Source: Alphaproteobacteria bacterium (GTDB lineage Bacteria > Pseudomonadota > Alphaproteobacteria > SHVV01). From it: DNA of 49,332 nt. The stretch is from contig SHVV01000003.1 in assembly GCA_009694095.1 (NCBI GenBank), positions 1 to 49,332 on the forward strand. Direction: 5' to 3'. Of this stretch, positions 14,959-38,426 are shown in pieces. A program made the position numbers and the translations under genes. Positions within the stretch are counted from its first letter, which is position 1. Each line of letters begins with the position of its first letter. Below the pieces are notes generated by a model. That model saw only the letters and a program-made list of their open reading frames with translations, was not told the origin of the DNA and made no database searches.

Positions 14959-17340
14959 ATGGCCGGTAAGTTTAAGGTCGCCATCGTCGGATCGGGACCT
15001 GCTGGAATGAGTGCCGGCGGCCGCGCTGCGGAAACCAACGTCTCGCACATCTTGTTTGAGAAATCCGACCACCTGTCGGACACCATCTATAAATACCAAA
15101 AAGGCAAGTTCGTCATGGCTACGCCAGACGTCTTGCCGCTGCGAAGCCCGATGACGTTCCAAGCCGGGATCCGCGAGGACATCCTGGGAACCTGGGACAA
15201 AGAAGCGGCGAAGCACAAGGTCAACGTCCGCTTCAAGAGCGAAGTCGTCGCGATCAAAGGACAAAAAGGGAACTTCGAACTCCGCGTCCAGGGCGGCGGC
15301 GATATCGTGGCCGAGTACGTAATCCTTTGCATCGGACTGCAGGGTAACCTGCGCAAACTCGAATGCGAGGGCGCCGACCGTCCCTGGGTGCAGTATCAAC
15401 TGGACGATCCCGACGCATACTCGGACGAAACCATCGTCGTGATTGGCGCCGGCGACGCGGCGATCGAAAATGCGGTTGCGCTTGCCAAGCAAAACAAAGT
15501 GATTATCGTCAACCGCCGCGATGAATTCGCCCGCGTCAAACAGGGCAATCTCAATCTGATCGCCGAAGCGATCGATAAGGGAATCATCGAGTGCTACTAC
15601 AACTCGGAACCGGGACACATCGGCGACAACTATCTTCTGCTGAAGACCGCCGAGGGCGAAGCCAAGATCGAGTGTAACCGCATCATCGCCCGACTTGGCG
15701 CCGACCCGCCGCGCCGATTCGTTGAATCGTGCGGCATCAAGTTTCCGAGCAAGGATCGCGCCGCGCTGCCCGAGCTTTCCGGGTCCTACGAGTCGAACGT
15801 TCCCGGCCTTTATATTCTCGGCGCCCTCGGCGGCTATCCGCTGATCAAGCAGGCGATGAACCAGGGCTACGAAGTTATCGAGTTCATCGAGGGGCGACCG
15901 GTCAAGCCAGCCGATGAGCCGCTGCTCGAATCAAAGTTCGCCAACATCAACGTGCCGGTCGAGGAGATGTTGCAGCGCATTCGGCAAAACGTACCGCTTC
16001 TTAGCGGCCTAACGACGCTGCAGTTGCGCGAGTTCATGATCGACTCGAATGTTCATACGCCGCGTCGCGGCGACGTTATTTTCCATCGCAACGACTACAC
16101 CAACAGCTTTTTCTCGATCGTCCAAGGCAATGTTGATATTCAGATCAATCCCACCAACACGGCGGAGGTGGTCGGCCTGGGACAGGGCCAATTCTTCGGC
16201 GAGATGGGCTTGATTTCAGGGCGGCGACGGACGGCAACGACAATTTCGGCGTCTGATGATTGCGTTCTCATCGAAACCCCGCGCCGATCGATGATCAAGC
16301 TGGTCAATTCTGTCGCCGCGGTGAAAAAGGTCCTCGATCAGACCGCGATGGCGCGGCAGATCCAGACCCATCTCGCCCCGGCCGTTCCGACGAGCGAGCT
16401 GCAGGAAGTCGTCGAGAGCGCGAAGATCGAGAGTTACCCGGCGGGTCACGTCATCTTCAACGAAGGAGACCAAGGCGACGCCGTCTACCTGATACGTCGC
16501 GGATCGGTCACCGTATCGCGCTCGATCGCCGGTCGGAATCTCGTGTTATCGTACGTACCCGCGGGCAACTACGTCGGCGAGATGGCTCTGCTCTCGCGCA
16601 AACCACGATCGGCGACGATCAAGACCGCCGTGGCGACCGAAGCGGTCAGGCTCGACGGTTCGGCGTTCAACAAGGTGCTCGACAAATATCCCGACCTGCG
16701 GCGACGTCTCGAGGCAAAATACGACCAACGTTTGGTCGAGAACGTGCGCATGGAGGCCTCGCCCGAGAGTGGCAGCCTCATTGAGTTTTTGGTCGCCCAG
16801 GGTGTCGGCGAAGCCACCGACGTACTTCTGATCGACGAGTCGCTCTGCGTACGCTGCGACAACTGCGAAAAAGCTTGCGCCGAAACCCACGGCGGAACCT
16901 CGCGGCTCGATCGCGAAGCTGGTCCAACCTTTGCCTCGCTTCACGTGCCGACGAGCTGCCGCCACTGCGAGCATCCGCATTGCATGGCTGATTGCCCGGC
17001 CGACGCCATTCACCGGGCCTCGAACGGCGAAGTCTTCATCGACGATAAATGCATCGGCTGCGGCAATTGCGAACGCAATTGTCCGTACCAGGTCATTCAC
17101 ATGGCGGCTAAACCACCCGCCAAACCAGGGTTGCTGCAGTGGTTGTTATTCGGCATGGGGCCGGGCCCCGGCGAAGACCTGGAAGCAAAGAAAATCAAGA
17201 GCAGTTCGCCAAAACTTGCCGTCAAATGCGACATGTGCAAGGACTTGGCGGCGGGTCCAGCGTGCGTTCGGGCTTGTCCGACGGGCGCGGCGATCCGCGT
17301 CAATCCAGAAGATTTTTTTGCGTTGACCATTAGAGGCTGA
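14959..17340 (+). CDS. Fusion: TrxB/YpdA-like FAD-NAD(P)H oxidoreductase + two cNMP-binding domains + 4x[4Fe-4S] ferredoxin domain
   Basis: AIVGSGPAGMSA (FAD), VIGAGDAAIENA..VNRR (pyridine nucleotide), ESNVPGLYILG; cNMP cassettes FFGEMGLISGRRRTAT and YVGEMALLSRKPRSAT; CVRCDNCEKAC, CRHCEHPHCMADCP, CIGCGNCERNCP, CDMC..PACVRACP. Confidence 0.9.
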   Translation: MAGKFKVAIVGSGPAGMSAGGRAAETNVSHILFEKSDHLSDTIYKYQKGKFVMATPDVLPLRSPMTFQAGIREDILGTWDKEAAKHKVNVRFKSEVVAIKGQKGNFELRVQGGGDIVAEYVILCIGLQGNLRKLECEGADRPWVQYQLDDPDAYSDETIVVIGAGDAAIENAVALAKQNKVIIVNRRDEFARVKQGNLNLIAEAIDKGIIECYYNSEPGHIGDNYLLLKTAEGEAKIECNRIIARLGADPPRRFVESCGIKFPSKDRAALPELSGSYESNVPGLYILGALGGYPLIKQAMNQGYEVIEFIEGRPVKPADEPLLESKFANINVPVEEMLQRIRQNVPLLSGLTTLQLREFMIDSNVHTPRRGDVIFHRNDYTNSFFSIVQGNVDIQINPTNTAEVVGLGQGQFFGEMGLISGRRRTATTISASDDCVLIETPRRSMIKLVNSVAAVKKVLDQTAMARQIQTHLAPAVPTSELQEVVESAKIESYPAGHVIFNEGDQGDAVYLIRRGSVTVSRSIAGRNLVLSYVPAGNYVGEMALLSRKPRSATIKTAVATEAVRLDGSAFNKVLDKYPDLRRRLEAKYDQRLVENVRMEASPESGSLIEFLVAQGVGEATDVLLIDESLCVRCDNCEKACAETHGGTSRLDREAGPTFASLHVPTSCRHCEHPHCMADCPADAIHRASNGEVFIDDKCIGCGNCERNCPYQVIHMAAKPPAKPGLLQWLLFGMGPGPGEDLEAKKIKSSSPKLAVKCDMCKDLAAGPACVRACPTGAAIRVNPEDFFALTIRG

Positions 17341-17382: not shown

Positions 17383-18210
17383 ATGCACGAGTCTATCTTA
17401 GTTTATCGACATTTCCGTTACCTTAAGTGGGCGGTAACGCTGACCGTGGTCGCAATTCTGGCGTATGTTTTTCACACGCCTGGCGAACCCGCGAACGGCG
17501 GCACGTGGCTTGGGTACACGTTAGGCGGGATCGGCGCTGGCCTCATTTTTTGGCTGGCGTGGTTCGGTATGCGAAAACGCGACTATGCCAAGCCGACCGG
17601 CAAACTCGAAGACTGGCTTTCGGCCCACATCTACCTCGGCTTGTCGCTGATTTTCATCGCCACGCTCCACTCCGGATTCCAGTTTGGCTGGAACGTTCAT
17701 ACGCTGGCATACGTCCTCATGATGCTCGTGATCGCTTCTGGCGCGTTCGGGCTTTACGCCTATATCCGCTACCCGCGGCTGATGACCGACAACCGTCGCG
17801 GTACGACGCTCGATGCGATGATCGTCGAAATGGCCGAGGCCGACCGGGAGATTCGCGAATTGGCCGCGAAAATGAGCGACGAGATACGCGATCTCGTTTT
17901 CGACGCAATCGACAACACCACCATCGGTGGCGGCGTTCGCCGCCAGCTCGAGCCGGGTCGCTCCGGCCGTACCGTCGCGGCAATCGACAAAGTACGCAGT
18001 GCGTTTGCGTCGGGGGCGCGCGACCAGACCGAAACCTCGCGCCGTCTTATCTCGCTGCTAACGCGCAAGAATGAGCTTGTCGTGCGGGCGCGCAACGACG
18101 TCATGTACAAAGCAATGATGGATGTTTGGCTGTACGTCCACGTGCCGCTTTCGTTCGCTTTGCTCGTGGCCTTGGTCGCCCACGTCATCGCCGTTTTTTT
18201 CTACTGGTAG
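17383..18210 (+). CDS. Integral membrane protein, probable di-heme cytochrome b (ferric-reductase-like TM domain)
   Basis: About 5 TM helices; two of them carry His pairs 14 residues apart (WLSAH..ATLH, codons 17626/17668; WLYVH..LVAH, codons 18139/18181). Confidence 0.75.
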   Translation: MHESILVYRHFRYLKWAVTLTVVAILAYVFHTPGEPANGGTWLGYTLGGIGAGLIFWLAWFGMRKRDYAKPTGKLEDWLSAHIYLGLSLIFIATLHSGFQFGWNVHTLAYVLMMLVIASGAFGLYAYIRYPRLMTDNRRGTTLDAMIVEMAEADREIRELAAKMSDEIRDLVFDAIDNTTIGGGVRRQLEPGRSGRTVAAIDKVRSAFASGARDQTETSRRLISLLTRKNELVVRARNDVMYKAMMDVWLYVHVPLSFALLVALVAHVIAVFFYW

Positions 18211-18219
18211 GGTAGACCC

Positions 18220-19905
18220 GTGCGCGTTCGAATTAGTCACCTCACGCGAAAAGCCAAGGGTGTCGCTCACCGCGACGAAGATCGCGAAGAGGATATTCTT
18301 CGTATCGGTCGAGCGACCGATTCGGAAATCTATCTACCCGATGCTCGAGTCAATCTCGTCCACGCGACGCTCAGTCGTCGGCCGGGCGGGTTCTTCATTG
18401 AGGCCGTTGGCGCATCGACGATCCGGCACAATGGCGCATCGCGCTCTTCAGCGCCGCTTAAGATCGGCGACAACGTCATGATCGGACCCTACGATTTGAC
18501 GATCGTTGCCCCCGCCGCCGGGGAAGCGATCGATGTCACGATTGCGGTAGAACTGGTCCGGGCGCAGGCCGACGATCTGGTCGCGCTACGCGCGCGAAGC
18601 CGGACGTCGATCGAAGAAACCGGCCTTCGTAAACGCAGCGTGTCATGGGCTCTATCGATTGTCGTTTTTGTCCTCTTTATCGCCTTGCCCATCGCCGGGT
18701 TCTTCATTCCGGGATTGAACGAATGGTCGCGCAAACTGCCGGTCGCATTCGACCATTCTTGGGATTCCGGGCCGGCGTCGGATTCGCATAAATTCTTTGC
18801 TGGCGACTGCAGCGCTTGCCACCAAAAGGCGTTCGTACAGGTGCGCGACTCGGCTTGTCTGGCATGCCACGCCAAAATCGAAGAGCATGCGCCGCACGAC
18901 GTGAAGGTCGCTGCTTTGTCGGAGGAGCGATGCGCGCACTGCCACAAAGAACACACGCACAATGACGCGATCATCGTCCGAGCGCAGGGGTTCTGCGCCA
19001 ACTGTCACGTCGACCTAAAGAAATTCAACTCTAAATCGACGGTTGCCGATATTGGCGACTTCTTCAGCCAACACGCCGAATTCCGGCCAACCGTCGTCAA
19101 GGCCGTCGAAACGAAAAAATTCGAACGCGTGTCGCTTTCCGACAAAGCTAATCTGATCGAACAATCGAACCTGAAGTTCCCGCACGATAGACATCTGAGC
19201 GAACGCGGCGTGCGCGGACCAAACGGCGTCAGGCAGCTAAAATGCGCCGATTGTCACGAGCCCGACCGCGGCGGCGTCGGTTTGTTGCCAATCGAGATGA
19301 CCAAGCACTGCGCCGATTGCCACCAACTCACCTTCGATCCACGTGCGCCCGAGCGTAAACTGCCGCACGGCGACGTTGCTTCGGCTGTCGGCGTCATTCA
19401 AGACTTCTACGCCGGTCTCGCGCTGAGGGGCCAGATTGAAGAGGAATCGGCGCCGGCTTCGGTTCGCCGACGCGTGGGCCAGCCACTTCGTGAAGAAGAG
19501 AAAAAAGAAGCGCTTGCCTGGGCCGAGACCAAAGCCAAACAACAGATGGAGATAATCCTCGGTACGTCGCTCTGTAAGAGCTGTCATATCGTCGAGCCGC
19601 CGAGCGCGCAGAATCCGTCATGGCGCGTGAAGCCAGTCAAGGTCGTAAACGTCTGGATGCCAAAGGCCATATTCGTCCATGCCAAGCATTCGACCGTCGA
19701 CTGCACGCACTGTCACGACGCACCTAAATCGACGCAGTCATCCGACGTCTTGATGCCTTCGATCAATACTTGCCGCGAATGCCACGGCGGCGAAAATCAG
19801 GCGAGCCGACTTCCATCGCCGTGCGCGATGTGCCACGTCTTCCACCGGCAAGATCTCGGGCCAATGCGCCCAGACTTCAAGAAGACGGCGGCAACGGGTA
19901 ATTAG
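18220..19905 (+). CDS. FHA-domain, single-TM, decaheme c-type cytochrome
   Basis: N-terminal ILRIGRATDSEIYLPDARVNLVHA (FHA-like); TM SWALSIVVFVLFIALPIAGFF; 10 CxxCH (CSACH, CLACH, CAHCH, CANCH, CADCH x2, CKSCH, CTHCH, CRECH, CAMCH). Confidence 0.9.
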   Translation: MRVRISHLTRKAKGVAHRDEDREEDILRIGRATDSEIYLPDARVNLVHATLSRRPGGFFIEAVGASTIRHNGASRSSAPLKIGDNVMIGPYDLTIVAPAAGEAIDVTIAVELVRAQADDLVALRARSRTSIEETGLRKRSVSWALSIVVFVLFIALPIAGFFIPGLNEWSRKLPVAFDHSWDSGPASDSHKFFAGDCSACHQKAFVQVRDSACLACHAKIEEHAPHDVKVAALSEERCAHCHKEHTHNDAIIVRAQGFCANCHVDLKKFNSKSTVADIGDFFSQHAEFRPTVVKAVETKKFERVSLSDKANLIEQSNLKFPHDRHLSERGVRGPNGVRQLKCADCHEPDRGGVGLLPIEMTKHCADCHQLTFDPRAPERKLPHGDVASAVGVIQDFYAGLALRGQIEEESAPASVRRRVGQPLREEEKKEALAWAETKAKQQMEIILGTSLCKSCHIVEPPSAQNPSWRVKPVKVVNVWMPKAIFVHAKHSTVDCTHCHDAPKSTQSSDVLMPSINTCRECHGGENQASRLPSPCAMCHVFHRQDLGPMRPDFKKTAATGN

Positions 19906-19960
19906 TGGCTCCATGCGTAGTTTTAAATATCGTGAACTGAAGAATGACGGAGGCTGCCCG

Positions 19961-20392
19961 TTGTTGAAACGAGTGATGCTATGGGGCATTGGGGGCGTGC
20001 TGGCGCTTGCCATGACGACGACGTTTGAATCGGCACAGGCGGCGTCTTTGTCGACGTCCGGAGCGGTCTTGACCGATCTGCGGGCCGACATCGACAACGC
20101 ACAGATTTCGCAAACCATCGATCTCAATGGCGACGTTGCGATCGCGACCTACGTCATGGCGCACATGCCCGATGGCAAGTCATTGCAACGCAACAATCTC
20201 GGCTACTGGTTGCCGTGGAACGGCCAGATCGACACCCTCCTCGACAATAAGTTCGTCGCCGGAGGTTCGACGCTCACATTCAAGATCATCGACCAAAGTA
20301 TTCGCGATCGAATGTTTCCGATCACCTTCGTCGTCGCCTATCGCACGGCCGCGGCGTTCAAGTTCGGCGTGCTTCAAGTGTCGCCCCAATAA
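19961..20392 (+). CDS. Small exported hypothetical protein
   Basis: GGAGG RBS at 19949-19953 before TTG19961; signal peptide ending ..ESAQA; beta-rich body; tightly packed in the operon. Confidence 0.7.
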   Translation: MLKRVMLWGIGGVLALAMTTTFESAQAASLSTSGAVLTDLRADIDNAQISQTIDLNGDVAIATYVMAHMPDGKSLQRNNLGYWLPWNGQIDTLLDNKFVAGGSTLTFKIIDQSIRDRMFPITFVVAYRTAAAFKFGVLQVSPQ

Positions 20393-20398
20393 ACGAGC

Positions 20399-22279
20399 AT
20401 GCTGATACGACATTGGATTCAAGCGTTTGTTTCGACCTTCATCGCCGCCGTGGCAACCGGTCCGGTGGCAGCAGAGAGTGCGCTGACGGCGGCCGAAGTC
20501 GGCCAGATCATCGCGCAAGCGGTCAACGAAGCCCAGGGGCGCGGCGCATTGGCGACGATCGCTGCCGTCGATCGCGTCGGCAATGTCTTGGGCGTATTCC
20601 AGATGACCGGCGCCGCCGCCAACGCGACGATCAGTTCAGGCCGCAACGTCGTCGGCGGGCTCGAAGCCGCCGCCGTTCCTTCGACGCTCGCCGCCATCGC
20701 CAAGGCGATCACCGGCGCCTACATTTCTTCCCGCGGCAATGCGTTCACGACACGCACCGCGAGTCAGATCGTCCAGCAAAACTTCAACGTCGGCGAAACT
20801 TTTCAACCCGGCGGACCGCTGTTCGGCGTGCAATTCAGTCAGCTGCCGTGCTCGGACCTCGCCGTGCGTTTTTTCGATGGTGGCGCGGGCGGCATCGTTA
20901 ACGCGACGCTCGGGCCGAAACGCTCGCCGCTTGGCCTCTCGGCCGACCCCGGCGGGCTCCCGCTCTATAAAGCCGGCGACCTCGTCGGCGGAATCGGGGT
21001 CATCAGCGACAGCCTTTATTCGCTCGACCCAGTCATTACCAATTTCGATACCGACGCCGACGAATTGATCGCGGTCGGTGGCCAATCCGGATTCGCGCCA
21101 CCCAACGATATCAAGGCGAATTTCATTTCGGCCGGCGGACGGACGCTCCGCTACATCGATCGCGGGCCCGAAGCATTGGCGCGAAACCCGGCGACTGCGA
21201 CTGCATTCGGCGGGATCAACGGCGTCGTCGGCGTGCTCGCTAACGTCACCGGCTATTTCACTGCCGGCGGCGGCATTCTCGCTGGGCGGCAATACGGTAC
21301 CGCCGCGTCAGGCTATCGCCTTGAAGACGGGACGACTTACGGAACATTCCGCAACGGCAACCGCGCGATGATCTTGGTAGATGGCGCCGACACCAACCGA
21401 TTCCCGCCGGCCGTTGGCAGCGATGGACTGCTGTCGGCGGCCGAGGTGACTCGAATCATGATCGGAGCGCTGGCGGTGGCTTACGCTGGCCGGGCGCAAA
21501 TCCGGCGGCCGCTTTCGGACAACATTCACGTTACGATCTCGATCGTCGACACCAACGGCAAGATTCTGGCGTTGGCGCGGACCTTCGATGGTCCAGTGTT
21601 CGGCACCGACGTATCGCTGCAAAAAGCCCGCTCGGCGATGTTCTTCAGCAATCTCAACGCGGCTGCTGACTTTACTGCCGGGGGCCACGGCGCGCGCGTT
21701 GCGCAGGTTCGAACTTTCTTCGGAATCCCGACGTTATTGGCTGACGGTATCGCCTGGGGAAATCGCTCGATCGGCAATATCGCTCGCCCGTACTACCCCG
21801 ATGGCATCAACGGCAATCCGAATGGTCCGCTCAGCAATCCGGAATCCGCTTGGAGCCCGTTTTCGGTCGGGCTCCAGCTTGAGTTGGTCTCCGCCAACAT
21901 CCTGACCCACCTCGGATTCGTCGCCGGCCTGAACGCCGACACGCCGTCGCGTTGCACCGCGCTGCCGTTGCAGGTCGCGACCGGCGCGCCGAGGCTTGCC
22001 AACGGCCTGCAGATTTTCGCCGGCGGCGTTCCGATTTTCCGGGGCAATACCCAAGTCGGCGGCATCGGCATCTCCGGCGATGGCATCGACCAAGACGACA
22101 TGGTGGCATTCCTCGGCTTGCACAACGCTGGAGTCGCGCTCGCGACCGGCGTCAGTAACGCGCCCAAGGGGATCCGCGCCGATAATATCAGCGCATTTGG
22201 CGCTCGGCTGCGCTACGTCAATTGCCCGTTCGCGCCCTTCATCGACACATCGGCTCAGAACGTATGCGCCGGCAAATGA
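20399..22279 (+). CDS. Exported tandem GlcG/HbpS-type heme-binding protein
   Basis: Signal peptide; two repeats: TIAAVDRVGNVL..AIAKAITGA..GGLPLYKAGDLVGGIGV and TISIVDTNGKIL..SLQKARSA..GGVPIFRGNTQVGGIGISGDGIDQDD. Confidence 0.85.
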   Translation: MLIRHWIQAFVSTFIAAVATGPVAAESALTAAEVGQIIAQAVNEAQGRGALATIAAVDRVGNVLGVFQMTGAAANATISSGRNVVGGLEAAAVPSTLAAIAKAITGAYISSRGNAFTTRTASQIVQQNFNVGETFQPGGPLFGVQFSQLPCSDLAVRFFDGGAGGIVNATLGPKRSPLGLSADPGGLPLYKAGDLVGGIGVISDSLYSLDPVITNFDTDADELIAVGGQSGFAPPNDIKANFISAGGRTLRYIDRGPEALARNPATATAFGGINGVVGVLANVTGYFTAGGGILAGRQYGTAASGYRLEDGTTYGTFRNGNRAMILVDGADTNRFPPAVGSDGLLSAAEVTRIMIGALAVAYAGRAQIRRPLSDNIHVTISIVDTNGKILALARTFDGPVFGTDVSLQKARSAMFFSNLNAAADFTAGGHGARVAQVRTFFGIPTLLADGIAWGNRSIGNIARPYYPDGINGNPNGPLSNPESAWSPFSVGLQLELVSANILTHLGFVAGLNADTPSRCTALPLQVATGAPRLANGLQIFAGGVPIFRGNTQVGGIGISGDGIDQDDMVAFLGLHNAGVALATGVSNAPKGIRADNISAFGARLRYVNCPFAPFIDTSAQNVCAGK

Positions 22280-24087
22280 CCTTATGGTACGTTTTCTATG
22301 TTGCGCTCGCGGTAGCGATCACCCTGGCAACATCGCCATCGTTTGCCGGCAAAGAAAAAATCGAAGCCAGCGGTGAAACCGGCGTCACGCTGGCGCAGGC
22401 AACCGACGAAGATCGCCGCCGACCCGGGCGTCCGGTCCCGGACCGGCAACAAATCCCCGCAGTCGATTCGTCCCGGGTGCCGCCGCCGCAGCCGACGCTG
22501 CCGCGCGAAACCATCCCGGTTCCCGATCGTTGGCGCATCGTCGAGTCGATCGGCGTCAACTCGCGTTGGTGGGACCCGTACAATCAGAACATGCTCAAGG
22601 GCGACCGGCCGGTGTTCGATGACTGGTTCGTCAACTTGAGCGTGATCCTCGACGCGATTTACGAACCACGCCGGTTTCCCAACCCGACCGGCACGCAGGC
22701 GACGACCAACGCCAACGCGGTCGATCAGTTCGGCAAGAACAAGCAGACGGTTCTCGCCGAGAACCTGATCACCACGCTGTCGTTTATCAAAGGCAACACC
22801 GCCTACCAACCGCCGGACTATGAAATCCGCATCGGGCCGGTCTTCAACCACAATAAGGTGGTGGCGGAGGAAGTGGGGCTGCTGTACGCCGACCCGGCCA
22901 AGGGCCGCACGCGCAGCGATCAGTTCGTCGGCTGGCAGGAGCTGTTCCTCGACTACCATATTCGCAACGTCTCCGATCGGTTCGATTTCGACTCGATCCG
23001 TCTCGGTATCCAGCCCTTTCAACTCGACTTCCGTGGATTCCTCTTTCAGGACTTGCAGCTCGGCGCGCGTCTGTTCGGCAACCGCGACAACAATTTCTGG
23101 CAGTACAACGTCGGTTGGGTGCGCCGCCTCGAAAAAGACACTAATAGCGGTTTGAACGACATCGGCGCCAAGCTGCGCGACGATGACGTCTACTTCGTCA
23201 ATCTTTTCCGCCAGGACTGGCCGGTGCTCGGATTCACGAGCCAGGCCGTGGTCGCGCACAACCGCAACAACGAGGACGATCGCCGCTATTTCAACGAGAA
23301 CGAGTTCCAGGAGCGTCCGGCGCCGATCGGCGATCAACGGCCGCGCAAGTATCACGTCACCTATCTCGGGCTGAACGGCGACGGACACTTCGGCCGGCTC
23401 AACCTGACCGGCTCGCTCTATTACGCATTCGGTAAAGACGAGCTTAATCAATTCGCCGGCGACGGATCGAGCGCCGATATCCGCGCCTATTTCGCCGCTA
23501 CGGAGGCGTCTTGGGACTTCAGCTGGATTCGAGTTCGTGCCCAAGCGGCGTATGCGTCCGGCGATAACGATCCAACTGACGGCAAGGAGGGCGGCTTCGC
23601 GGCGATCTTCGAAAACCCGCAGTTCGCCGGCTCAGATACGAGTTACTTCATTCGGCAGTCGATCCCCTTCATCGGTGGCGGCGGCACGACGATCACTTCG
23701 CGCAACGGGATGCTCACGGAGCTGCGCACCTCGAAGGAGCACGGCCAGTCGAACTTCATCAATCCGGGCTTGATCCTTGCCGGCTTCGGCACCGACATGG
23801 ACCTCTCGCCGCAGCTTCGCGTCTCGACCAATTTCAACCACTTGTCGTTCGCCACCACCGATTCGCTCGAGTTCCTGCGCAATCAGAACGCGATCGGCGA
23901 CGAAATCGGTTACGACCTCTCGGTCGCTTTCACCTATCGCCCGCATTTCACGCAGAACGTCGTGTTCCGGCTATCCGGCGCCTGGTTGATCCCGGGCGAC
24001 GGGTTTCGCGACATCTACCGGGCGCGAACCGGAACCGGCGACGACTTCTTCTACTCCGTGCTCGGCAACGTGACTCTCACCTATTAG
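22276..24087 (+). CDS. Outer-membrane beta-barrel (porin-like) protein
   Basis: ATGA overlap with the upstream stop; signal peptide ..SFA; many amphipathic aromatic strands; C-terminal beta-signal YSVLGNVTLTY; no Cys. Confidence 0.78.
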   Translation: MTLWYVFYVALAVAITLATSPSFAGKEKIEASGETGVTLAQATDEDRRRPGRPVPDRQQIPAVDSSRVPPPQPTLPRETIPVPDRWRIVESIGVNSRWWDPYNQNMLKGDRPVFDDWFVNLSVILDAIYEPRRFPNPTGTQATTNANAVDQFGKNKQTVLAENLITTLSFIKGNTAYQPPDYEIRIGPVFNHNKVVAEEVGLLYADPAKGRTRSDQFVGWQELFLDYHIRNVSDRFDFDSIRLGIQPFQLDFRGFLFQDLQLGARLFGNRDNNFWQYNVGWVRRLEKDTNSGLNDIGAKLRDDDVYFVNLFRQDWPVLGFTSQAVVAHNRNNEDDRRYFNENEFQERPAPIGDQRPRKYHVTYLGLNGDGHFGRLNLTGSLYYAFGKDELNQFAGDGSSADIRAYFAATEASWDFSWIRVRAQAAYASGDNDPTDGKEGGFAAIFENPQFAGSDTSYFIRQSIPFIGGGGTTITSRNGMLTELRTSKEHGQSNFINPGLILAGFGTDMDLSPQLRVSTNFNHLSFATTDSLEFLRNQNAIGDEIGYDLSVAFTYRPHFTQNVVFRLSGAWLIPGDGFRDIYRARTGTGDDFFYSVLGNVTLTY

Positions 24088-24097
24088 GGTCGCCTCA

Positions 24098-27000
24098 ATG
24101 CGCTTGGTCTTTGCCGCGATCTTTTTCTTCGCGCTCGGCGTTGCCGGCGGCGGTATGGCGTCCGAAGGCGAGAAGCCGCTCGACCTTCAATACGTGACAG
24201 CGCCGCCAGCGCCGGTATCGCAAACACAAGCTCAGGCCGACGCCAAAAGTGTGGGCTGCATGAGCTGTCACACCCAGACCGATCAGAAGACGATGCATGC
24301 CAACCCGGCGATCGTCTTGGGGTGCGTCGACTGCCACGGTGGCGACGCTGCGGTGCGCAAGCCGGAAGGTTCGAAATACGACCGCACCTACGCGAAGGAG
24401 AAGAAAGCGCTCCACCACGACGACGAACACGGAAAGGGCGGCGAGGAAGAGCGCCATGGCGCAATCGACCCGTTGTTATTCGGCGACGCCGCCTACGTCG
24501 CGGCGATGCAAAAAGCCCACGTCATGCCGCGCATGCCCAATACCTGGGGCTATCCGCGCAGCCGCAACCCCGAGCGCGCCTACACGCTCTTCAACAAGGA
24601 GGCGCCGGAGTACATCCGCTTCGTCAATCCGTCCGACTACCGCATTGCGCGAGAGGCCTGTGGCGCCTGCCACTTGCCGATCATCCAAGCCGCCGAGCGC
24701 CATCTGATGTCGACCGGCGCCATGCTGTTCGGTGGTGGCGCCTACAACAACGGCATACTTCCGTTCAAAAACTATCTCTTGGGCGAGGCTTACACGCGAG
24801 ACGGCCAGCCGGCCGCGGTCGAAAGCCCTGGCTTCACGCCGGAGATGAAGAAGTGGGGCGTCATCGAAAAGTTGGTGCCGTTGCCGACGTTCCAGACCGT
24901 GCCGCCGGGCGACGTTTTCCGCGTGTTTGAGCGCGGCGGGCGCAACATCGTCACCCAGTTCCCCGAGATCGGGTTACCCAACTCGCTCGGCCAGATTCAA
25001 CGTCTCGAAGAACCGGGCCGTCCCGATTTACGCCAGTCGATGCGCGGGCCTGGAACCGGGCTTCGCATTGCGGTGCCGGTCCTCAACATTCACCGAACGC
25101 GCCTCAACGACCCGTTCATGTGGTTCATGGGCACCAACGATCAGCCCGGCGACTACCGCACGTCGGGTTGCGGCGGTTGCCACATCGTTTACGCCAACGA
25201 CCGCGACCCGCGCCACTCGGGGCCTTATTCGATTTACGGACACGAGGGCAAGACCCAGACTATCGACCCGACGATCCCGAAGGACGAAGAAGGCCACCCG
25301 ATCAAGCACGAATTCTCGCGCCAAATTCCGACCGCGCAGTGCATGAACTGTCACATGCACCAACCCAACGTCTTCGTGAACAGCTTCATGGGCTACACGA
25401 TGTGGGACTACGAATCGGATGCACCGAACATGTGGCCGGAGAAACAGCAATATCCGACCGCGGCCGAGATCCGAAAAGTCAACGAACGCAATCCCGAGGA
25501 AGCCGCGATCCGCGGCAAGTGGGCGGACGTCGAGTTCACCAAGAACGTGTGGACCGACGTCAACCCGAAGAACAAGGATACGCAATTCGCCGACTATCAT
25601 GGCCACGGCTGGAATTTCCGCGCCATCTATAAACGCGATCGCAAAGGCAATTTGCTCGACGCCGATGGCAAGATCGTTTCCAACGACGATCCGCAGAAGT
25701 TCAAGAAAGCCGTGCACATGTCGTCGATCCATGTCGACAAAGGCATGCACTGCATCGACTGTCATTTTTCCCAGGACGCTCACGGCAACGGCTACATCCA
25801 GACCGAGGTCGCCAACGCGGTCGAAATCGATTGCGCCGACTGCCACGGCACGGTCGACAAGTTGCCGTCCCTCATTACGAGCGGGCCGGCGGCGCTCCGC
25901 GGCGGTTACGACCTCACGCTGATCCGCCTGGGCGACGGCCGCCGCCGTTTCGAATGGCGTGGCGACACGCTTGTCCAGCGCTCGGCGCTGTGGCCCAATC
26001 TCGAGTGGGAGATGAGTCTCGTCAAACACAGCGTCGAGCCCGATCACAAGGACTACAACCCCAAGGCGGCGCGGGCGAAGCTGATGTCCAAGGATACAGC
26101 GTCGCTCAAGTGGGGCCCCGGGGTTGCCAAGGACGATCGCGCCCATAAAGACGACGAAATGCTGTGTTTCACATGCCACCTCTCGTGGACGACGAGCTGC
26201 GCTGGTTGCCACCTGCCGATTCAGGCCAACTGGAAGGCGCCTTCGCATAAGTACGAAGGCCAAGTCTCGCGCAACTACGCGACTTACAACCCGCAAGTCG
26301 CGCGCGACGATGTCTTCCACTTGGGTCGCCACCAGACCACAAAAGGCAACAAGATCGCTCCCGTCCGGTCTTCATCGGGGCTGGTGTTGTCGTCGCAGAA
26401 CATTAACCGCGAGCGCATCTACATCCAGCAGCAGCCGGTCGCCGCCTCGGGCCACTCGGCGCAGGCTTTCGCTCCACACTTCCCCCACACTGAGCGCAAG
26501 ACCGAAACCAAGACCTGCAACGATTGCCACCTGTCGGAGAGCGACGACAACAACGCGATCATGGCCAACACGCTGATGTTCGGGACCAATTTCCCGACCT
26601 TCGTCGGCGCCAATGCCTGGGTCGCCGCGGATGGCGGCATCGAGGGCGTGCAAGTGACCGAGTACGACGAGCCGCAGGCCGTCATCGGCAGTTACCTGCA
26701 CCGATATGCCTACCCCGACTGGTATGCCGACCACCAAAAGCACGGCAAGGAACTGCAGATCGCCCACAACCACCCATCGGCGCGCGCCGCCTGCCTCCAG
26801 CTTCGCGGCGAATATCTCTACGTCGCCGAGGGCCCGAATGGGTTCCGCGCCTACGACGTCGCCTCGATCGCCAACAAAGGATTTTCACAGCGCATCGTCA
26901 CGGCGCCGTTCGGCCCGTGGGGTCACGACACCCACATCGCCACAAAGAACGCGACCTGCGTGGCCTTGCCGTCGAACGCCCAAGCGATTCATCCGGCGCG

Positions 27001-27970
27001 CAACCAGGGCGACCTGATGCGCAAGGACAATCAGGAGCAGCCGTTCCACCCAATCTACGACTACGCGTTCGTCACCGACTCGGAAGAAGGTCTGATTGCG
27101 GTCGACGTCAACACTCTTTCGGACGGCGAGCCGCGCAATAATTTTTTCACCCGCGCGCTGACGTGGAACGAGAACGGAGTCCTGAACGGCGCCCGCCACA
27201 TCACGATCGCTGGCTACTATTTCTACATCGTCGCCGATTCGGGCATCGTCGTTCTCAACATGGACGATCCGATGAAGCCCAAGGTCGAAAGCATCATACC
27301 GCTGAAAAACGGCCATTCGACGGCGCTCCAGTTCCGCTACTTGTTCGCCACCGACGCCGAGGGCTTCAAGGTGTTTGACGCCACCAACATGGCCAAACCG
27401 GTTGCGGTGCCCGGCGCCGTCATCCCGCTCAGAAATGCCAACCGCATCCTGCCGGTCCGAACCTACGCTTATGTCGCCGCCGGCAACGAGGGTCTTGTCA
27501 TCATCGACATCGAGAAACCGCGTAAACCTTCGGTCTACATGAAGTACACCGCCGACGGCGCGATCAACGATGCGCGCGACGTGACAGTAGGCACGACTAA
27601 CGCGACGCTCTTCGCTTACGTCGCCGACGGCAAGAACGGTCTCAAGGTGATTCAACTGACCGCGCCTGACACGCAGCCCAACTTCTACGGGTTTAGCCCT
27701 GAGCCCAAACCGAACCTGATCGCGTGGTACAAGACGACTTGGCCGGCGCTCGGTCTCTCCAAAGGGCTCGAACGTGACCGCGCCGTCGATGAAACCGGCG
27801 GTCAGATCGCGGTCTTCGGTCGGCTAGGGTCGCGTCCGTTCTCGAAGAAAGAAATGGAGAAATTCTATCTCGATGCCCAAGGGCGGCCGTGGTTCACCCA
27901 CGAGGAAATTCGCCAACGTGACTTCGTGTCGGTCAAGCCCGGCGAGCGCAAGGCGGCGAGAGCGAACTGA
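24098..27970 (+). CDS. Exported decaheme c-type cytochrome with C-terminal LVIVD-repeat beta-propeller
   Basis: Signal peptide; 10 CxxCH (CMSCH, CVDCH, CGACH, CGGCH, CMNCH, CIDCH, CADCH, CFTCH, CAGCH, CNDCH); about 7 repeats such as YLYVAEGPNGFRAYDV, YAFVTDSEEGLIAVDV, YAYVAAGNEGLVIIDI, FAYVADGKNGLKVIQL. Confidence 0.9.
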   Translation: MRLVFAAIFFFALGVAGGGMASEGEKPLDLQYVTAPPAPVSQTQAQADAKSVGCMSCHTQTDQKTMHANPAIVLGCVDCHGGDAAVRKPEGSKYDRTYAKEKKALHHDDEHGKGGEEERHGAIDPLLFGDAAYVAAMQKAHVMPRMPNTWGYPRSRNPERAYTLFNKEAPEYIRFVNPSDYRIAREACGACHLPIIQAAERHLMSTGAMLFGGGAYNNGILPFKNYLLGEAYTRDGQPAAVESPGFTPEMKKWGVIEKLVPLPTFQTVPPGDVFRVFERGGRNIVTQFPEIGLPNSLGQIQRLEEPGRPDLRQSMRGPGTGLRIAVPVLNIHRTRLNDPFMWFMGTNDQPGDYRTSGCGGCHIVYANDRDPRHSGPYSIYGHEGKTQTIDPTIPKDEEGHPIKHEFSRQIPTAQCMNCHMHQPNVFVNSFMGYTMWDYESDAPNMWPEKQQYPTAAEIRKVNERNPEEAAIRGKWADVEFTKNVWTDVNPKNKDTQFADYHGHGWNFRAIYKRDRKGNLLDADGKIVSNDDPQKFKKAVHMSSIHVDKGMHCIDCHFSQDAHGNGYIQTEVANAVEIDCADCHGTVDKLPSLITSGPAALRGGYDLTLIRLGDGRRRFEWRGDTLVQRSALWPNLEWEMSLVKHSVEPDHKDYNPKAARAKLMSKDTASLKWGPGVAKDDRAHKDDEMLCFTCHLSWTTSCAGCHLPIQANWKAPSHKYEGQVSRNYATYNPQVARDDVFHLGRHQTTKGNKIAPVRSSSGLVLSSQNINRERIYIQQQPVAASGHSAQAFAPHFPHTERKTETKTCNDCHLSESDDNNAIMANTLMFGTNFPTFVGANAWVAADGGIEGVQVTEYDEPQAVIGSYLHRYAYPDWYADHQKHGKELQIAHNHPSARAACLQLRGEYLYVAEGPNGFRAYDVASIANKGFSQRIVTAPFGPWGHDTHIATKNATCVALPSNAQAIHPARNQGDLMRKDNQEQPFHPIYDYAFVTDSEEGLIAVDVNTLSDGEPRNNFFTRALTWNENGVLNGARHITIAGYYFYIVADSGIVVLNMDDPMKPKVESIIPLKNGHSTALQFRYLFATDAEGFKVFDATNMAKPVAVPGAVIPLRNANRILPVRTYAYVAAGNEGLVIIDIEKPRKPSVYMKYTADGAINDARDVTVGTTNATLFAYVADGKNGLKVIQLTAPDTQPNFYGFSPEPKPNLIAWYKTTWPALGLSKGLERDRAVDETGGQIAVFGRLGSRPFSKKEMEKFYLDAQGRPWFTHEEIRQRDFVSVKPGERKAARAN

Positions 27971-28138: not shown

Positions 28139-29482
28139 TTAAGACCGCGGGATCGCCTCGTTGAGCTTCCGCATCGCCGCGACGAACGCTTCCGGCCGAT
28201 AAGCTTCGTCCTTCGCCGTCGCGTCGTACGCCTCGTTCAAGGTATTGATCATCTTTTTGTGCTGAGCGTCGTTGACGAGGCCCGACTGTTTCATCGCATT
28301 GATGATCGCCGAAAGCGCCATCGTCGCTTGCTCCGCCGTCGCATAGTCGACGAATTCACCCTTCATGCCCTCTTGGGTGACGCCGCTCAGAAGCGCTTCC
28401 ATGTCTTTGCGCTCGAAGGTGTGCTTGGCGAACCGGTCGACCAGCTGCGCGACAATCGCCAGCATCTCCTTGGCGGCATCGGCCGTTTGCTGCGGGCTCT
28501 GGGTCGAAGCCTGATGCAACTTAACCGTAGAGTCGCGGAGCCGTTGTCCGGACGGCTCATCGACCTGCGTTGCAATGATGCGCAGCATGATCATGTTCGC
28601 GTCGTTGAGCCGAATGATGCCCGGCCCGAGCTTGGCGCTTTCACGCCGTTGCCAGCGTACGTTGCTCATCGGGTGATGGCACGCGTGGCAGTCGAACAGC
28701 ACGAGCTCGGGGAAAATACCGTCGTGGCTTCGGGTCGGCGACGTCAAGGCCTCAAGGAGCCCGCGGAGTTGAATTGCTTGACCGATCGCCCAGGTCTGAA
28801 CGCCGTTCAGGACCGGCTTGCGCTTGCGATAGTCGGCATCGACGACGAAGTGCGCCGGCTGGATGGCGGTAAACGTGTCGAGCTCAAAGCTCATGCGTGG
28901 ATGGCCGGCACCCATAATGCGGTGGGTGACGAACTTGGTTTCGTTGCCGAAGTGGCACGACAGGCAAAGCTCGGCTCGCTTAACCGGGTCGGTGGTTGGA
29001 TACATGCCGTTCTTCAGATTGTCGGCGTGACCGGCCGTGCCCGAGATGTGAATGCCGAGCCAGCGTACCGCACCGCCATGACACGCCTCGCACCCAACGC
29101 CATCCGATACCTGGTAGGTGCGGCCGCGCGCTTCGGGGGCGGGACTGTCGGCGTGACAATCGAGGCAAATCTTCGCCGTATGGGCGTTGGGAAGCCCCAA
29201 ATTGGCGGCAATCCGTTTTGAGCGCTCGTTATGCAGCACCTCGAACGCTTTGGCGTGCTTATCCTGACGCGTCCAGGTGACGTATTCGTTTTGCTGAACG
29301 TTGGCGTCCTTCCATGGCGTGACCGCGCCGTGGCACGTGGAGCCGGCGCAACTGGCGACGCCGAGGTGTACGTCTTTGCTCTGGGACGGCAATTGCTGGC
29401 CAACAGCAGCCCACGCGAGAACGCTCGCGAAAAGGCCGACGACAAGGAATGAGCGAAGGGTCATCCCCAAGCGCCGCGTCAT
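28139..29482 (-). CDS. Periplasmic pentaheme c-type cytochrome (c554/c552-like N-terminal domain + helical C-terminus)
   Basis: RBS GGGAGG before ATG29482; signal peptide; CAGSTCH (Cx4CH), CLDCH, GVGCEACHG, CLSCH, CHACH; W...KHAKAF motif. Confidence 0.87.
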   Translation of the reverse strand: MTRRLGMTLRSFLVVGLFASVLAWAAVGQQLPSQSKDVHLGVASCAGSTCHGAVTPWKDANVQQNEYVTWTRQDKHAKAFEVLHNERSKRIAANLGLPNAHTAKICLDCHADSPAPEARGRTYQVSDGVGCEACHGGAVRWLGIHISGTAGHADNLKNGMYPTTDPVKRAELCLSCHFGNETKFVTHRIMGAGHPRMSFELDTFTAIQPAHFVVDADYRKRKPVLNGVQTWAIGQAIQLRGLLEALTSPTRSHDGIFPELVLFDCHACHHPMSNVRWQRRESAKLGPGIIRLNDANMIMLRIIATQVDEPSGQRLRDSTVKLHQASTQSPQQTADAAKEMLAIVAQLVDRFAKHTFERKDMEALLSGVTQEGMKGEFVDYATAEQATMALSAIINAMKQSGLVNDAQHKKMINTLNEAYDATAKDEAYRPEAFVAAMRKLNEAIPRS

Positions 29483-29571
29483 GATTCCTCCCTGAAACTT
29501 GTCTCTTCCGAACGCTCTCACTGCTTCAATACTATGGCGCGCTCCCGGGCAATGATAAAGCCTTAAGTCGG

Positions 29572-30327
29572 ATGCCGGAACTACCCTTGCAATCGATTCT
29601 CATTATCGCCGCGGCGCCGTTTTTCGGCAGTTTTATCGCGACTGTTGCCCGCCGTTTGCCGGCCGGATCGAGCATCGTCTTTGGCCGATCGCGATGCCCC
29701 TACTGCCAAGCGGTGCTATCACCGCGGGACCTCGTTCCGGTCCTCAGTTGGGCGCTCGCGAAGGGCCGTTGCCGTCTGTGCGGACATGCGCTCGGCGGCT
29801 ACTATCCGGCGGTCGAATTGATTGCGCTCGCGATCGCCGCGGTTGCGGTTACCTTTTTCACGGGGCCCTGGTCTTGGGTCGCGGCATCGTTTGGTTGGGC
29901 GCTGCTCGCGCTCGCGGCGGCCGATGCCGACTCTTTCACGCTGCCCGACTCGATCACGCTCCCGCTAATACCAACCGGCCTCGCCGCCGCGTGGGGGCTC
30001 GATCCCGATCGACTTCTTATGCACGCACTGGCCGCCGTGGGTGGGTTCGTTTGTTTCGCCGCGATTACGGTCGCTTACCGCGCGATTCGCCACCGCGATG
30101 GCCTCGGTTGGGGTGACGCCAAGCTCATGGCCGCCGCCGGCGCTTGGGTAGGGCCCTGGCCGCTGCCCTCGATCGTTCTCGCCGCTGCACTCGCGGCGCT
30201 CTCGGTCGTTGCGGTCAGCCGCCTTCGCGGCCGTAGCATCGAGGCGACGGAACAGGTACCCCTTGGCCTCTACCTCGCTCCGGCGATATGGGCCGCTTGG
30301 GTGGCCGAGCGTACCGGCGCGCTCTAG
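29572..30327 (+). CDS. gspO: Prepilin peptidase (A24 family)
   Basis: FFGSFI..RSRCPYC..DLVPVLSW..GRCRLC, catalytic AADADSFTLPD and GLGWGDAKL. Confidence 0.92.
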   Translation: MPELPLQSILIIAAAPFFGSFIATVARRLPAGSSIVFGRSRCPYCQAVLSPRDLVPVLSWALAKGRCRLCGHALGGYYPAVELIALAIAAVAVTFFTGPWSWVAASFGWALLALAAADADSFTLPDSITLPLIPTGLAAAWGLDPDRLLMHALAAVGGFVCFAAITVAYRAIRHRDGLGWGDAKLMAAAGAWVGPWPLPSIVLAAALAALSVVAVSRLRGRSIEATEQVPLGLYLAPAIWAAWVAERTGAL

Positions 30328-30406
30328 CAGTGTTCGCTCGAATGGCGCGGCCGCGCAGGTCCGGTTAAGATACCGCGGTAACTCACGATTTCAGGTGCTG
30401 ACCGCG

Positions 30407-32080
30407 ATGCCCCGCGAACTTGCGGACATATTGATCGATTCCGGCAAGCTCGACGCGCAGGCCCTCGACCGGGCGCTAGCTCTGGGCCGTTCAACCGGCG
30501 AGCGGACCGACGTCGTTCTCACTCGACTCGGGCTCGTTTCCGAGGACGACATGGCCCAAGCGCTGGCTGAGTTCCTGGGGCTGCGCGTCGCTCGTGCAGA
30601 ACACTATCCCGACGTGCCGGTCCTCACCGGACGGGTAACGCCGCGCTTCCTGCGCGAAGCGCGCGTACTACCGCTCGAAGAGCGCGAAACCGGTCTCACG
30701 CTAGCGATGGCCGACCCGCTCGATCGCTATGCGCTCGACGCGATGGGACTGCTGATCGGTAAAAAAATCGAGCGGTGGGTTGCGGTCCCCGCCGAGTTGG
30801 AGCGGGCGTTGGCCCGGCTGTACGGCGAGGGCGGTGCGACCGCGGAGAAGCCTGTGGCGGACGCCCGCGACCTATATTCCGCCGACGCGGCGCGGCTACG
30901 AGATCGCGCAAGCGATGCGCCGGCGATCCGCGCCGTCGACCAAATGATCGAAGACGCCACCGCCGAACGCGCATCCGATATCCACCTCGAACCGCTGGTC
31001 GATCGCATCCGCGTTCGCTTTCGGATCGATGGCATGTTGCGCGAACGGCCGGCGCCAATGGCCGCGGTGCGCACTGCCATCGTCAATCGGATCAAGGTCA
31101 TGGCCGGTTTGAATACGGCCGAACGGCGGTTGGCGCAGGACGGGCGTATCCGAACCAGTGTACGCGGTCGAGAGCTCGACATCCGCGTTTCGATCATTCC
31201 GGTCCAATACGGCGAGAGCGTCGTTCTACGCCTCCTCGACAAGTCACACGGTCCGGTCGATTTCGATCGGCTCGGCTTCGCACCTGACCTGGCGGCCAAG
31301 CTCGGCGACCTGCTCGCGCTGTCGCATGGACTAGTCCTGGTCACGGGACCGGTCGGCAGCGGTAAGACGACGACGCTCTACGCCGGCCTCAAGCGCCTGA
31401 ACTCAAGCGAACGTAAGATCGTAACCGCAGAGGATCCGATCGAGTACGAACTTCCCGGCATTAATCAAACGCAGGTCAAGCCGGCGATCGGCTTTACGTT
31501 CGCCGACGTGCTTCGGGCAACGCTGCGTCACGATCCCGACGTTTTGATGATTGGCGAAATCCGCGACCGAGAGACGGCGGAGATCAGCGTCCAAGCGGCT
31601 CTCACCGGGCACCTTGTTCTCACGACTCTACACACCAACGACGCAGCGAGCGCGGTGACCAGGCTCCTCGACATGGGAATCGAGAGTTTCCTTCTCGCCT
31701 CGGTTTTGCGGGCTGTTGTCGCACAGCGCCTGGTTCGAACGCTGTGCCTTGCGTGTCGTGCGCCTTACCGGCCGAGCGCCGAGGAGGCCGCCTACGCCGG
31801 AATAGCGCCGACGGCCGACGGCCAAATGCCGGACTTTTTTCACGCGGTCGGCTGTCCCGCTTGCGGCGGCACCGGCTATTCCGGTCGTACCGTAGTTGCC
31901 GAATTGCTCCCGGTTGATGAAGTAGTGCGCCCACTTATTCTCCAACGCGCCGATTGGCATACCATCGCGCGGGCGGTGGGCGCGGCCGGCGTTCGTAGTT
32001 TGGCCGCCGACGGTTTTGCCAAAGTGCGTGCCGGCGTGACAACCATTGCCGAAATCGTCCGTGTCACGCGGACTGTTTAG
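30407..32080 (+). CDS. gspE: Type II secretion ATPase
   Basis: ASDIHLEP, AERRLAQDGRI, TGPVGSGKTTTLY, EDPIEY, LRHDPDVLMIGEIRD, ALTGHLVLTTLHTND, CxxC..CxxC. Confidence 0.95.
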   Translation: MPRELADILIDSGKLDAQALDRALALGRSTGERTDVVLTRLGLVSEDDMAQALAEFLGLRVARAEHYPDVPVLTGRVTPRFLREARVLPLEERETGLTLAMADPLDRYALDAMGLLIGKKIERWVAVPAELERALARLYGEGGATAEKPVADARDLYSADAARLRDRASDAPAIRAVDQMIEDATAERASDIHLEPLVDRIRVRFRIDGMLRERPAPMAAVRTAIVNRIKVMAGLNTAERRLAQDGRIRTSVRGRELDIRVSIIPVQYGESVVLRLLDKSHGPVDFDRLGFAPDLAAKLGDLLALSHGLVLVTGPVGSGKTTTLYAGLKRLNSSERKIVTAEDPIEYELPGINQTQVKPAIGFTFADVLRATLRHDPDVLMIGEIRDRETAEISVQAALTGHLVLTTLHTNDAASAVTRLLDMGIESFLLASVLRAVVAQRLVRTLCLACRAPYRPSAEEAAYAGIAPTADGQMPDFFHAVGCPACGGTGYSGRTVVAELLPVDEVVRPLILQRADWHTIARAVGAAGVRSLAADGFAKVRAGVTTIAEIVRVTRTV

Positions 32081-33764: not shown

Positions 33765-33777
33765 TCGACCCCGCTAC

Positions 33778-36127: not shown

Positions 36128-36174
36128 CGCCCTGATTCGTTGCCTGAGAGCAATACCAAGTGTAGCTTTCCAGT

Positions 36175-37883: not shown

Positions 37884-37884
37884 C

Positions 37885-38370: not shown

Positions 38371-38426
38371 GACTCCGGCACGATTTGGCGCTAGATTTGT
38401 TTGCCTCATCAAGGGATTGGCTTTTC

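Follow-up and report, generated by a model that had tools for sequence, protein, structure and literature searches.

An FHA domain with a degenerate phosphothreonine pocket on a decahaem cytochrome: a possible docking module in a predicted inner-membrane electron conduit

Why would a decahaem cytochrome carry an FHA (forkhead-associated) domain on the far side of the membrane from its haems? One gene in a 49,332-nucleotide stretch of alphaproteobacterial DNA (contig SHVV01000003.1 of assembly GCA_009694095.1; hereafter the window) raises this question. An earlier note, made from the sequence alone, described its product as an FHA domain joined by a single transmembrane (TM) helix to ten CxxCH motifs, with a phosphothreonine pocket that looked degenerate, and offered two roles for the domain: a phosphothreonine-controlled input, or a phospho-independent tether to a cytoplasmic flavoenzyme. 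The reading that we favour, and to which we give about an even chance, is that the FHA-cytochrome would be the subunit facing the periplasm in an inner-membrane electron conduit encoded by three genes, with the FHA domain acting as a phospho-independent docking module inside this trio.

We first consider the fold of the N-terminal domain, which proves to be a real FHA domain. The Pfam FHA family (PF00498) scores 28.3 bits over residues 28-89 (cut-off 20.7) and matches 43 of 55 relatives at E ≤ 0.01. An AlphaFold2 (AF2) model of residues 1-200 was built from 55 sequences; in it, residues 1-110 have a predicted local distance difference test score (pLDDT) of ~97 and form eleven strands in the beta-sandwich of an FHA fold. 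A Foldseek search of this model against the PDB gave 35 matches at E ≤ 1e-3; FHA domains take all of the top places, led by OdhI (8p5x_G, 7.8e-7), Rv1747 FHA-2 (6cah) and GarA, with a type III secretion system entry (4d9v_B) at rank 34. The nearest solved FHA domains by sequence (phmmer) are Rv1747 FHA-2 (E 5.8e-6), GarA and OdhI. A second Pfam family, Yop-YscD_cpl (PF16697), scores 29.0 and 30.9 bits, under its cut-off of 33.2, and matches 46 of the 55 relatives at E ≤ 0.01.

The phmmer alignments to Rv1747 FHA-2, GarA and OdhI also bear out the degenerate pocket described in the earlier note. G30-R31 falls on the canonical GR, and H48 on the canonical His; N45, within VNLVH, takes the phosphate-binding Ser position of SxxH; G-A-S-T is aligned to the S-x-N-G-T loop, with the loop Asn gone; and N71-G72 falls on the later NG. 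An alignment of homologues at the Arg, Ser and Asn positions, which the note had proposed, shows the degeneracy to be family-wide. This alignment holds 114 full-length relatives of 121 stored proteins, excluding the window copy (P0002), rows shorter than 530 residues, rows with fewer than nine haem motifs and a partial protein (P0076). G30 is conserved in all 114 relatives, R31 in 104, D41 in 94, R43 in 88 and N71 in 84. The position of H48 is His in 73/114 and Gln in 22/114. At position 45, the canonical Ser is present in 9/114; the others have Ala (23), Leu (21), Pro (21) or further residues including Gly, Gln and Asn. Asn occurs in at most 9/114 in the loop columns 64-67, between beta6 and beta7. 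The full phosphothreonine set (Arg, Ser/Thr, His and the loop NG) is found in 0/114 relatives. Despite this, the FHA domain, as judged from its sequence, is not decaying and is under a constraint like that of the haem domain, because relatives are on average 36% identical to the window protein over this domain, versus 37% over the haem domain without its CxxCH residues (42% with them).

The architecture around this domain largely follows the earlier description. The protein has no signal peptide, its N-terminus being occupied by the FHA domain. Hydropathy detects one hydrophobic segment (residues 138-168) and AF2 models a long helix (residues 135-162), in agreement with a single TM helix; R139 precedes the segment in 112/114 relatives, and P157 lies within it in 113/114. 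The GTG start is 9 bases 3' of the stop of the upstream gene and is conserved, with Met in column 1 of the alignment in 99 of 114 relatives. A gene-call artefact, in which a separate FHA gene or a frameshift had been joined to a cytochrome, was ruled out: no stop interrupts the reading frame, and full-length relatives have their first haem motif at residues 186-231. Between the FHA domain and the membrane, the linker contains the motif R-S-x-T-x-L (residues 126-131, positions 18595-18612), with R126 in 70/114, S127 in 72/114, T129 in 60/114 and L131 in 93/114; this may be a site of phosphorylation, or just an amphipathic stretch close to the membrane.

Over the C-terminal two thirds, Pfam finds Cytochrome_C7, CIII and c3_2 over cut-off, together with paired-CXXCH, and the haem domain matches the solved structure of GSU1996 (3ov0, E 1.1e-13). 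The ten CxxCH motifs start at residues 197, 213, 238, 259, 342, 364, 452, 495, 518 and 535. The count in the earlier note is therefore correct, but its arrangement of six, a spacer and four is not: the spacing is 4+2+4, with gaps of 83 and 88 residues. Ten motifs are present in 116 of the 121 stored proteins. Separately, five relatives of 687-688 residues (P0055, P0059, P0064, P0065 and P0068) have an insertion of ~110 residues between the eighth and ninth motifs, which start at 501 and then 611. Ten candidate distal His residues (H190, H223, H245, H285, H322, H325, H383, H487, H490 and H542) include nine that are invariant and one that is nearly so, and are therefore enough for bis-His ligation of all ten haems. 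NapC/NirT (Cytochrom_NNT) is not among the six Pfam and seven NCBIfam families that match at E ≤ 0.01, and NrfH and DmsE are faint or sub-threshold. The assembly from which the window comes (1.88 Mb in 92 contigs, 63% complete) encodes CcmF- and CcmC-type maturation genes, and from these and the TM anchor we infer covalent haem attachment on the periplasmic side. Together, the FHA fold, the TM anchor, the distal His residues and the Ccm genes are consistent with an FHA domain inside the cell and a haem domain outside the cytoplasm, so that neither of the two findings named in the earlier note as counting against it, a different N-terminal fold or a cytoplasmic haem domain, was obtained.

We then sought to determine how widespread this fusion is. 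A homologue search found 154 proteins at E ≤ 1e-3 among 8000 scored candidates, and a profile search of 1.84 billion representatives found 2036 at E ≤ 1e-30. A search of GTDB, with a 12-row alignment of relatives as the query, identified 218 species genomes that encode a relative, mostly freshwater and marine Alphaproteobacteria with some Gammaproteobacteria; among the carriers are the cultured Oceanibacterium hippocampi CECT 7691 and Desertibaculum subflavum. Full-length matches occur in 13 of 401 genomes sampled evenly from the phylum, the window's own being one of them. Three partial matches from this sample (L113, L114 and L116) were ruled out as relatives; they are FHA proteins unrelated to the FHA-cytochrome, and two look by eye like FHA-sensor-cyclases. 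In contrast to the window FHA domain, all three have the canonical SxxH and GS(S/T)NG. Going by these searches, the FHA-cytochrome fusion defines a large family that is common in genomes. The coupling of a signalling domain to a haem wire, which the earlier note called unusual, is thus unusual in the literature, where a 2026 preprint describes it as unreported before, but not in genomes.

The genes that accompany the FHA-cytochrome suggest what it may do. When the window neighbours were searched by tblastn across 80 fetched loci, a 793-residue flavoprotein was found in 76 and a 275-residue membrane protein in 77, with the FHA-cytochrome as the third gene of the trio; most of the few loci that lack either partner are truncated by a contig end. 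The flavoprotein combines a YpdA/TrxR-like FAD/NAD(P)H domain, two cyclic nucleotide monophosphate (cNMP)-binding domains and a four-cluster ferredoxin domain, and its profile matches in the PDB are to Bdr (7a7b, 2.4e-30), PKA-R/PKG, HycB and ArrB. The ferredoxin domain has 16 invariant Cys residues in four groups, and HycB and ArrB are its nearest solved relatives. In the cNMP domains (positions 15990-16770, residues ~345-600), the cassette residues are G414-E415 with R422/R424-T-A, and G540-E541 with R550-x-A552-T553. These G-E and R-[ST]-A residues are invariant or nearly so in 41 sequences, and therefore a cyclic nucleotide probably binds. The flavoprotein is the most conserved member of the trio, with mean p-distances of 0.25-0.50 by domain, versus 0.55-0.66 for the regions of the cytochrome.

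The 275-residue protein is predicted to span the membrane with five helices, and its AF2 model includes a helical insert of ~115 residues (129-245) on the cytoplasmic side. Four His residues, H82 and H96 in TM3 and H253 and H267 in TM5, are invariant in 75/75 sequences, each pair being 14 residues apart. Its relatives match Ni_hydr_CYTB (61/65), DUF4405 (14/65) and Ferric_reduct (9/65) weakly in Pfam; all three matches point to di-haem b families, which we take to belong to one Pfam clan, and the ESM Atlas clusters nearest to it are labelled 'ferric reductase like'. It is a probable di-haem cytochrome b.

These features suggest a path for electrons through the trio. NAD(P)H would reduce the FAD of the flavoprotein, and its four [4Fe-4S] clusters would relay the electrons to the 5-TM protein, whose four invariant His residues would hold two b-haems for the passage across the membrane; the electrons would then be received by the ten bis-His c-haems of the FHA-cytochrome; in this window they might continue to a porin and a secreted ten-haem cytochrome encoded downstream. 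The FHA domain, on the cytoplasmic side of the TM helix, would clamp the cytoplasmic parts of the complex to its membrane subunits. It would bind either the flavo-iron-sulfur enzyme or the helical insert that the 5-TM protein has in the cytoplasm, probably through the conserved apical residues R31, D41 and R43. Energetically, outward flow is more plausible, because an electron leaving the negative cytoplasmic side runs with the membrane potential; inward flow to NAD(P)+ is less likely because it would run against both the membrane potential and the midpoint potential.

Several elements of such a path have well-known counterparts. In Nar and Fdn, the ferredoxin subunit with its four clusters sits on a membrane protein with two b-haems and electrons cross the membrane, and in NOX/FRE proteins electrons pass from NAD(P)H to flavin and then through two b-haems across the membrane. 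Compared with NarGHI/FdnGHI-type modules and NOX/FRE, the trio has no molybdopterin subunit and no identified quinone site, its acceptor or donor would be an anchored decahaem cytochrome c, its flavin and iron-sulfur domains are fused to cNMP sensors, and its 5-TM protein is sub-threshold to the cytochrome b families. CymA and other NapC/NirT proteins, ImcH and CbcL are likewise N-terminally anchored periplasmic multihaem cytochromes that feed porin-cytochrome conduits. They draw electrons from the quinol pool, however, and are not known to have a cytoplasmic domain.

We propose a docking role for the FHA domain because it is near-universal in the family and normally constrained, because the phosphothreonine set is lost family-wide and Hanks kinases are few in carrier genomes, and because there are precedents in SctD and in OdhI/GarA. 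The FHA-fold domains of SctD lack the phosphothreonine residues and bind SctK (PMC3162421; bioRxiv 10.1101/2020.09.22.308627). As described in these sources, SctD proteins (MxiG, YscD, PrgH and PscD) share the topology of the window protein, in which one TM helix links an FHA fold at the cytoplasmic N-terminus to a domain in the periplasm, and their phosphothreonine residues are missing or misplaced and SctK is docked without phosphate, a parallel to the role proposed for the window FHA domain. They differ in that the window protein is below the cut-off of Yop-YscD_cpl and has a haem wire instead of a ring-building periplasmic domain; R31 is kept in the window FHA domain, whereas PscD has no such Arg. 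No type III secretion gene context was found in the window, where the neighbours are redox proteins and the downstream secretion genes are of type II. In the second precedent, the FHA domain of OdhI/GarA binds OdhA/KGD directly, with an Arg contact and with the pocket Ser dispensable (PMC10415282). GarA and OdhI, the nearest solved relatives of the window FHA domain, are thus described as binding a metabolic enzyme through an apical surface; unlike it, they are soluble, have a full phosphothreonine pocket and are turned off when a kinase phosphorylates their own N-terminus.

Several observations weigh against this reading. R31 is kept in 104/114 relatives, which may leave room for an anionic ligand, including phosphate; the linker has its semi-conserved R-S-x-T-x-L motif; and Hanks kinases are present in two of five 100%-complete carrier genomes (G188 and G362). 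The di-haem b assignment rests on His conservation and sub-threshold Pfam matches. Further, in an exploratory partial-Mantel analysis of rate covariation (52 taxa, cubic baseline), partial r for the FHA domain is 0.21 (p 0.006) against the 5-TM insert, 0.18 (p 0.011) against the flavin domain and -0.03 against the iron-sulfur domain, alongside 0.24 against the protein's own linker and 0.21 against its own haem domain, so that the partner is not discriminated. These values are small and may be inflated by shared fast evolution.

A bolder form of the docking proposal, which we consider doubtful, is that the FHA domain is a phosphate-independent, reversible clamp that docks a cyclic-nucleotide-sensing NADPH flavo-iron-sulfur dehydrogenase on a pair of di-haem b and decahaem c cytochromes. 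Gated by a second messenger, the trio would then wire the cytoplasm of common aquatic Alpha- and Gammaproteobacteria to their surface without recourse to the quinone pool, and would be an equivalent of NOX/FRE in bacteria.

If the FHA domain had no specific partner, it could be a cytoplasmic plug or oligomerisation knob that fixes the N-in topology during Sec export and haem attachment, or a conserved leftover of an ancestral fusion. The loss of the pocket residues would fit, as would the presence of only 7 of 100 FHA columns with at least 80% conservation. Further, among the best 150 of the 2036 profile matches, three (430-471 residues) begin at profile positions 124-140 and have no FHA domain in the called protein; two more are clipped inside the FHA domain, and in all others the alignment starts at the N-terminus. 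Those three without the domain may, however, be truncated gene calls, as is relative P0035, which starts inside the FHA domain and so demonstrates that short calls can be mis-started. The domain also matches the haem domain in identity across more than 100 relatives and conserves the apical R31, D41 and R43, and NapC/CymA-type anchored cytochromes are not known to need a cytoplasmic FHA-like domain. We regard a partnerless FHA domain as unlikely.

The domain might instead be a genuine phosphothreonine reader: once a Ser/Thr kinase had modified a partner, or the R-S-x-T-x-L linker of the cytochrome itself, binding of this phosphothreonine by the FHA domain would switch the haem wire on or off. 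The Pfam match over cut-off, the retained phosphate-contacting Arg, the juxtamembrane Ser/Thr motif and the two kinase-encoding carriers are all compatible with such a switch, and the closest solved FHA domains, those of GarA, OdhI and Rv1747, come from kinase-regulated proteins. Yet no relative in the alignment has the full canonical set, the pocket Ser is mostly Ala, Leu, Pro, Gly, Gln or Asn, and the loop Asn is not conserved. The census of carrier genomes points the same way: a Pkinase match (E ≤ 1e-3) is absent from three of the five complete carriers (G032, G140 and G320), in a search that did not extend to atypical kinases, and in G032 and G140 the cytochrome's own FHA domain is the only FHA match in the genome. 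The window's own assembly, at 63% completeness, likewise has the FHA-cytochrome gene as its single FHA match, one Pkinase match of 19.9 bits, under the cut-off of 31.7, and no PP2C_2 match. We therefore think a phosphothreonine switch quite unlikely; of the two roles in the earlier note, phospho-independence is favoured over phosphothreonine input.

It is very improbable that the FHA domain is a signal output, with haem redox state or occupancy in the periplasm passing through the TM helix to alter FHA binding to a cytoplasmic effector, for although the architecture (periplasmic cofactor domain, one TM helix, cytoplasmic interaction domain) and the regulatory inputs implied by the flavoprotein's two cNMP domains would suit it, Pfam and NCBIfam detect no HAMP, kinase, cyclase or DNA-binding domain in the FHA-cytochrome or its conserved neighbours, one TM helix, in what is presumably a hetero-oligomer, is ill suited to transducing a signal, and ten bis-His haems resemble a wire rather than a sensor. 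The inward transmission of periplasmic redox state that the earlier note suggested accordingly found nothing in its support.

Returning to the docking reading and the predicted conduit, we asked which outer components accompany the trio. Across the 80 loci, a 159-residue exported protein is found in 51, an HbpS-like protein in 64, a porin in 61 and a 1290-residue cytochrome in 59, and the trio is kept where this outer module differs or is missing. At four loci (L058, L068, L074 and L079) the trio stands beside penta- and tetrahaem genes and not the HbpS-like/porin/decahaem module. Because it adjoins different outer modules, the inner-membrane trio is, on this gene-order evidence, a portable unit coupled to varying outer modules. 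The coordinates of the trio and of the outer module in the window are collected in Table 1.

Table 1. Coordinates in the window of the FHA-cytochrome gene, its predicted parts and the neighbouring genes of the conduit
Feature	Position	Strand	Basis
FHA-decahaem cytochrome gene	18220..19905	+	561 aa, GTG start
FHA domain, predicted cytoplasmic, residues 1-113, degenerate phosphothreonine pocket	18220..18558	+	Pfam, AF2, Foldseek
Juxtamembrane linker, residues 114-134	18559..18621	+	AF2 low-confidence helix 116-127 (pLDDT 63-75), semi-conserved R-S-x-T-x-L
Single TM helix, predicted signal anchor, N-terminus inside	18622..18714	+	hydropathy, AF2, R139/P157 conservation
Predicted periplasmic ten-haem c-type cytochrome domain, residues 171-561	18730..19905	+	10 CxxCH, 10 distal His, Pfam
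793-aa predicted cytoplasmic flavo-iron-sulfur protein	14959..17340	+	Pfam, NCBIfam, PDB profile matches, invariant Cys
275-aa 5-TM protein	17383..18210	+	invariant His, AF2 helices, weak Pfam matches
159-aa exported protein; HbpS-like 626-aa periplasmic protein; 621-aa porin-like barrel; secreted 1290-aa ten-haem cytochrome with LVIVD repeat	19913..27970	+	Pfam, CxxCH counts, N-termini

Two gene clusters described in recent preprints resemble this one. In Ferrigenium straubiae, NHC combines an FHA domain in the cytosol with one TM helix and a nonahaem domain in the periplasm, and is encoded beside 5-TM and [4Fe-4S] proteins; its authors state that an FHA domain with a multihaem cytochrome was unreported before and that the function of NHC is unknown (bioRxiv 10.64898/2026.01.22.701106). 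The likeness of the two trios is by description only. According to the text of that preprint, NHC has nine CxxCH motifs, in contrast to the ten of the window protein; its 5-TM protein is said to have no redox motif, whereas the window family has four invariant His residues; and quinone reduction during Fe(II) oxidation is proposed, the pocket of the FHA domain not being analysed in that text. One relative in our set, P0106, with nine CxxCH motifs and one CxxxxCH, may from its motifs be of the NHC type. The second cluster, ptdABCDEFG, from a 2024 preprint, is transcribed in an oxygen-deficient zone and is of unknown function (bioRxiv 10.1101/2023.11.21.568154). As the preprint text describes them, PtdE (cNMP-binding, 4Fe-4S), PtdF (ferric-reductase-like, TM) and PtdG (periplasmic decahaem) match the trio, by description only, and have porin and multihaem neighbours; that text makes no mention of an FHA domain. 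The ptd outer module, as given there, consists of a pentahaem protein, a porin, an FAD oxidoreductase and a tetrahaem protein, in contrast to the HbpS-like protein, porin and LVIVD decahaem cytochrome of the window. A table in a 2023 Gallionellaceae pangenome paper also contains a ten-CXXCH 'Forkhead-associated protein' cluster in 27 genomes.

The FHA-cytochrome is thus a member of a recently noticed, uncharacterised family and not a new kind of protein. New here are the family-wide loss of the phosphothreonine set, the kinase census, the invariant His residues of the 5-TM protein, the four-cluster ferredoxin domain and the varied outer modules. If the docking reading is true, FHA domains would gain a structural role in a respiratory-type complex, beyond Ser/Thr signalling and secretion machines, and the trio would carry electrons from cytoplasmic NAD(P)H to haems in the periplasm and outside the cell by a route independent of the quinone pool. 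Such a route would bear on pelagic iron reduction, extracellular redox chemistry and the physiology of Fe(II) oxidisers, subjects for which the two preprints flag the cluster as of unknown function. The cultured carriers make the question of the FHA-cytochrome directly testable.

The remaining observations concern the surroundings of the trio. The 626-residue exported protein (20399-22279, +) contains two HbpS-like stretches, of a haem-degrading/haem-binding family. Directly downstream of the conduit operon, a gene on the opposite strand (28142-29521, -) encodes a 460-residue multihaem cytochrome (Cytochrome_C554/C7). It is followed by a type II secretion cluster (30209-40589, +) with GspE, GspF, GspK, a PilN-like protein and the GspD secretin, which might serve the export of the 1290-residue surface cytochrome. 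An IS240-type DDE transposase gene (354-1124, +) lies near the window start.

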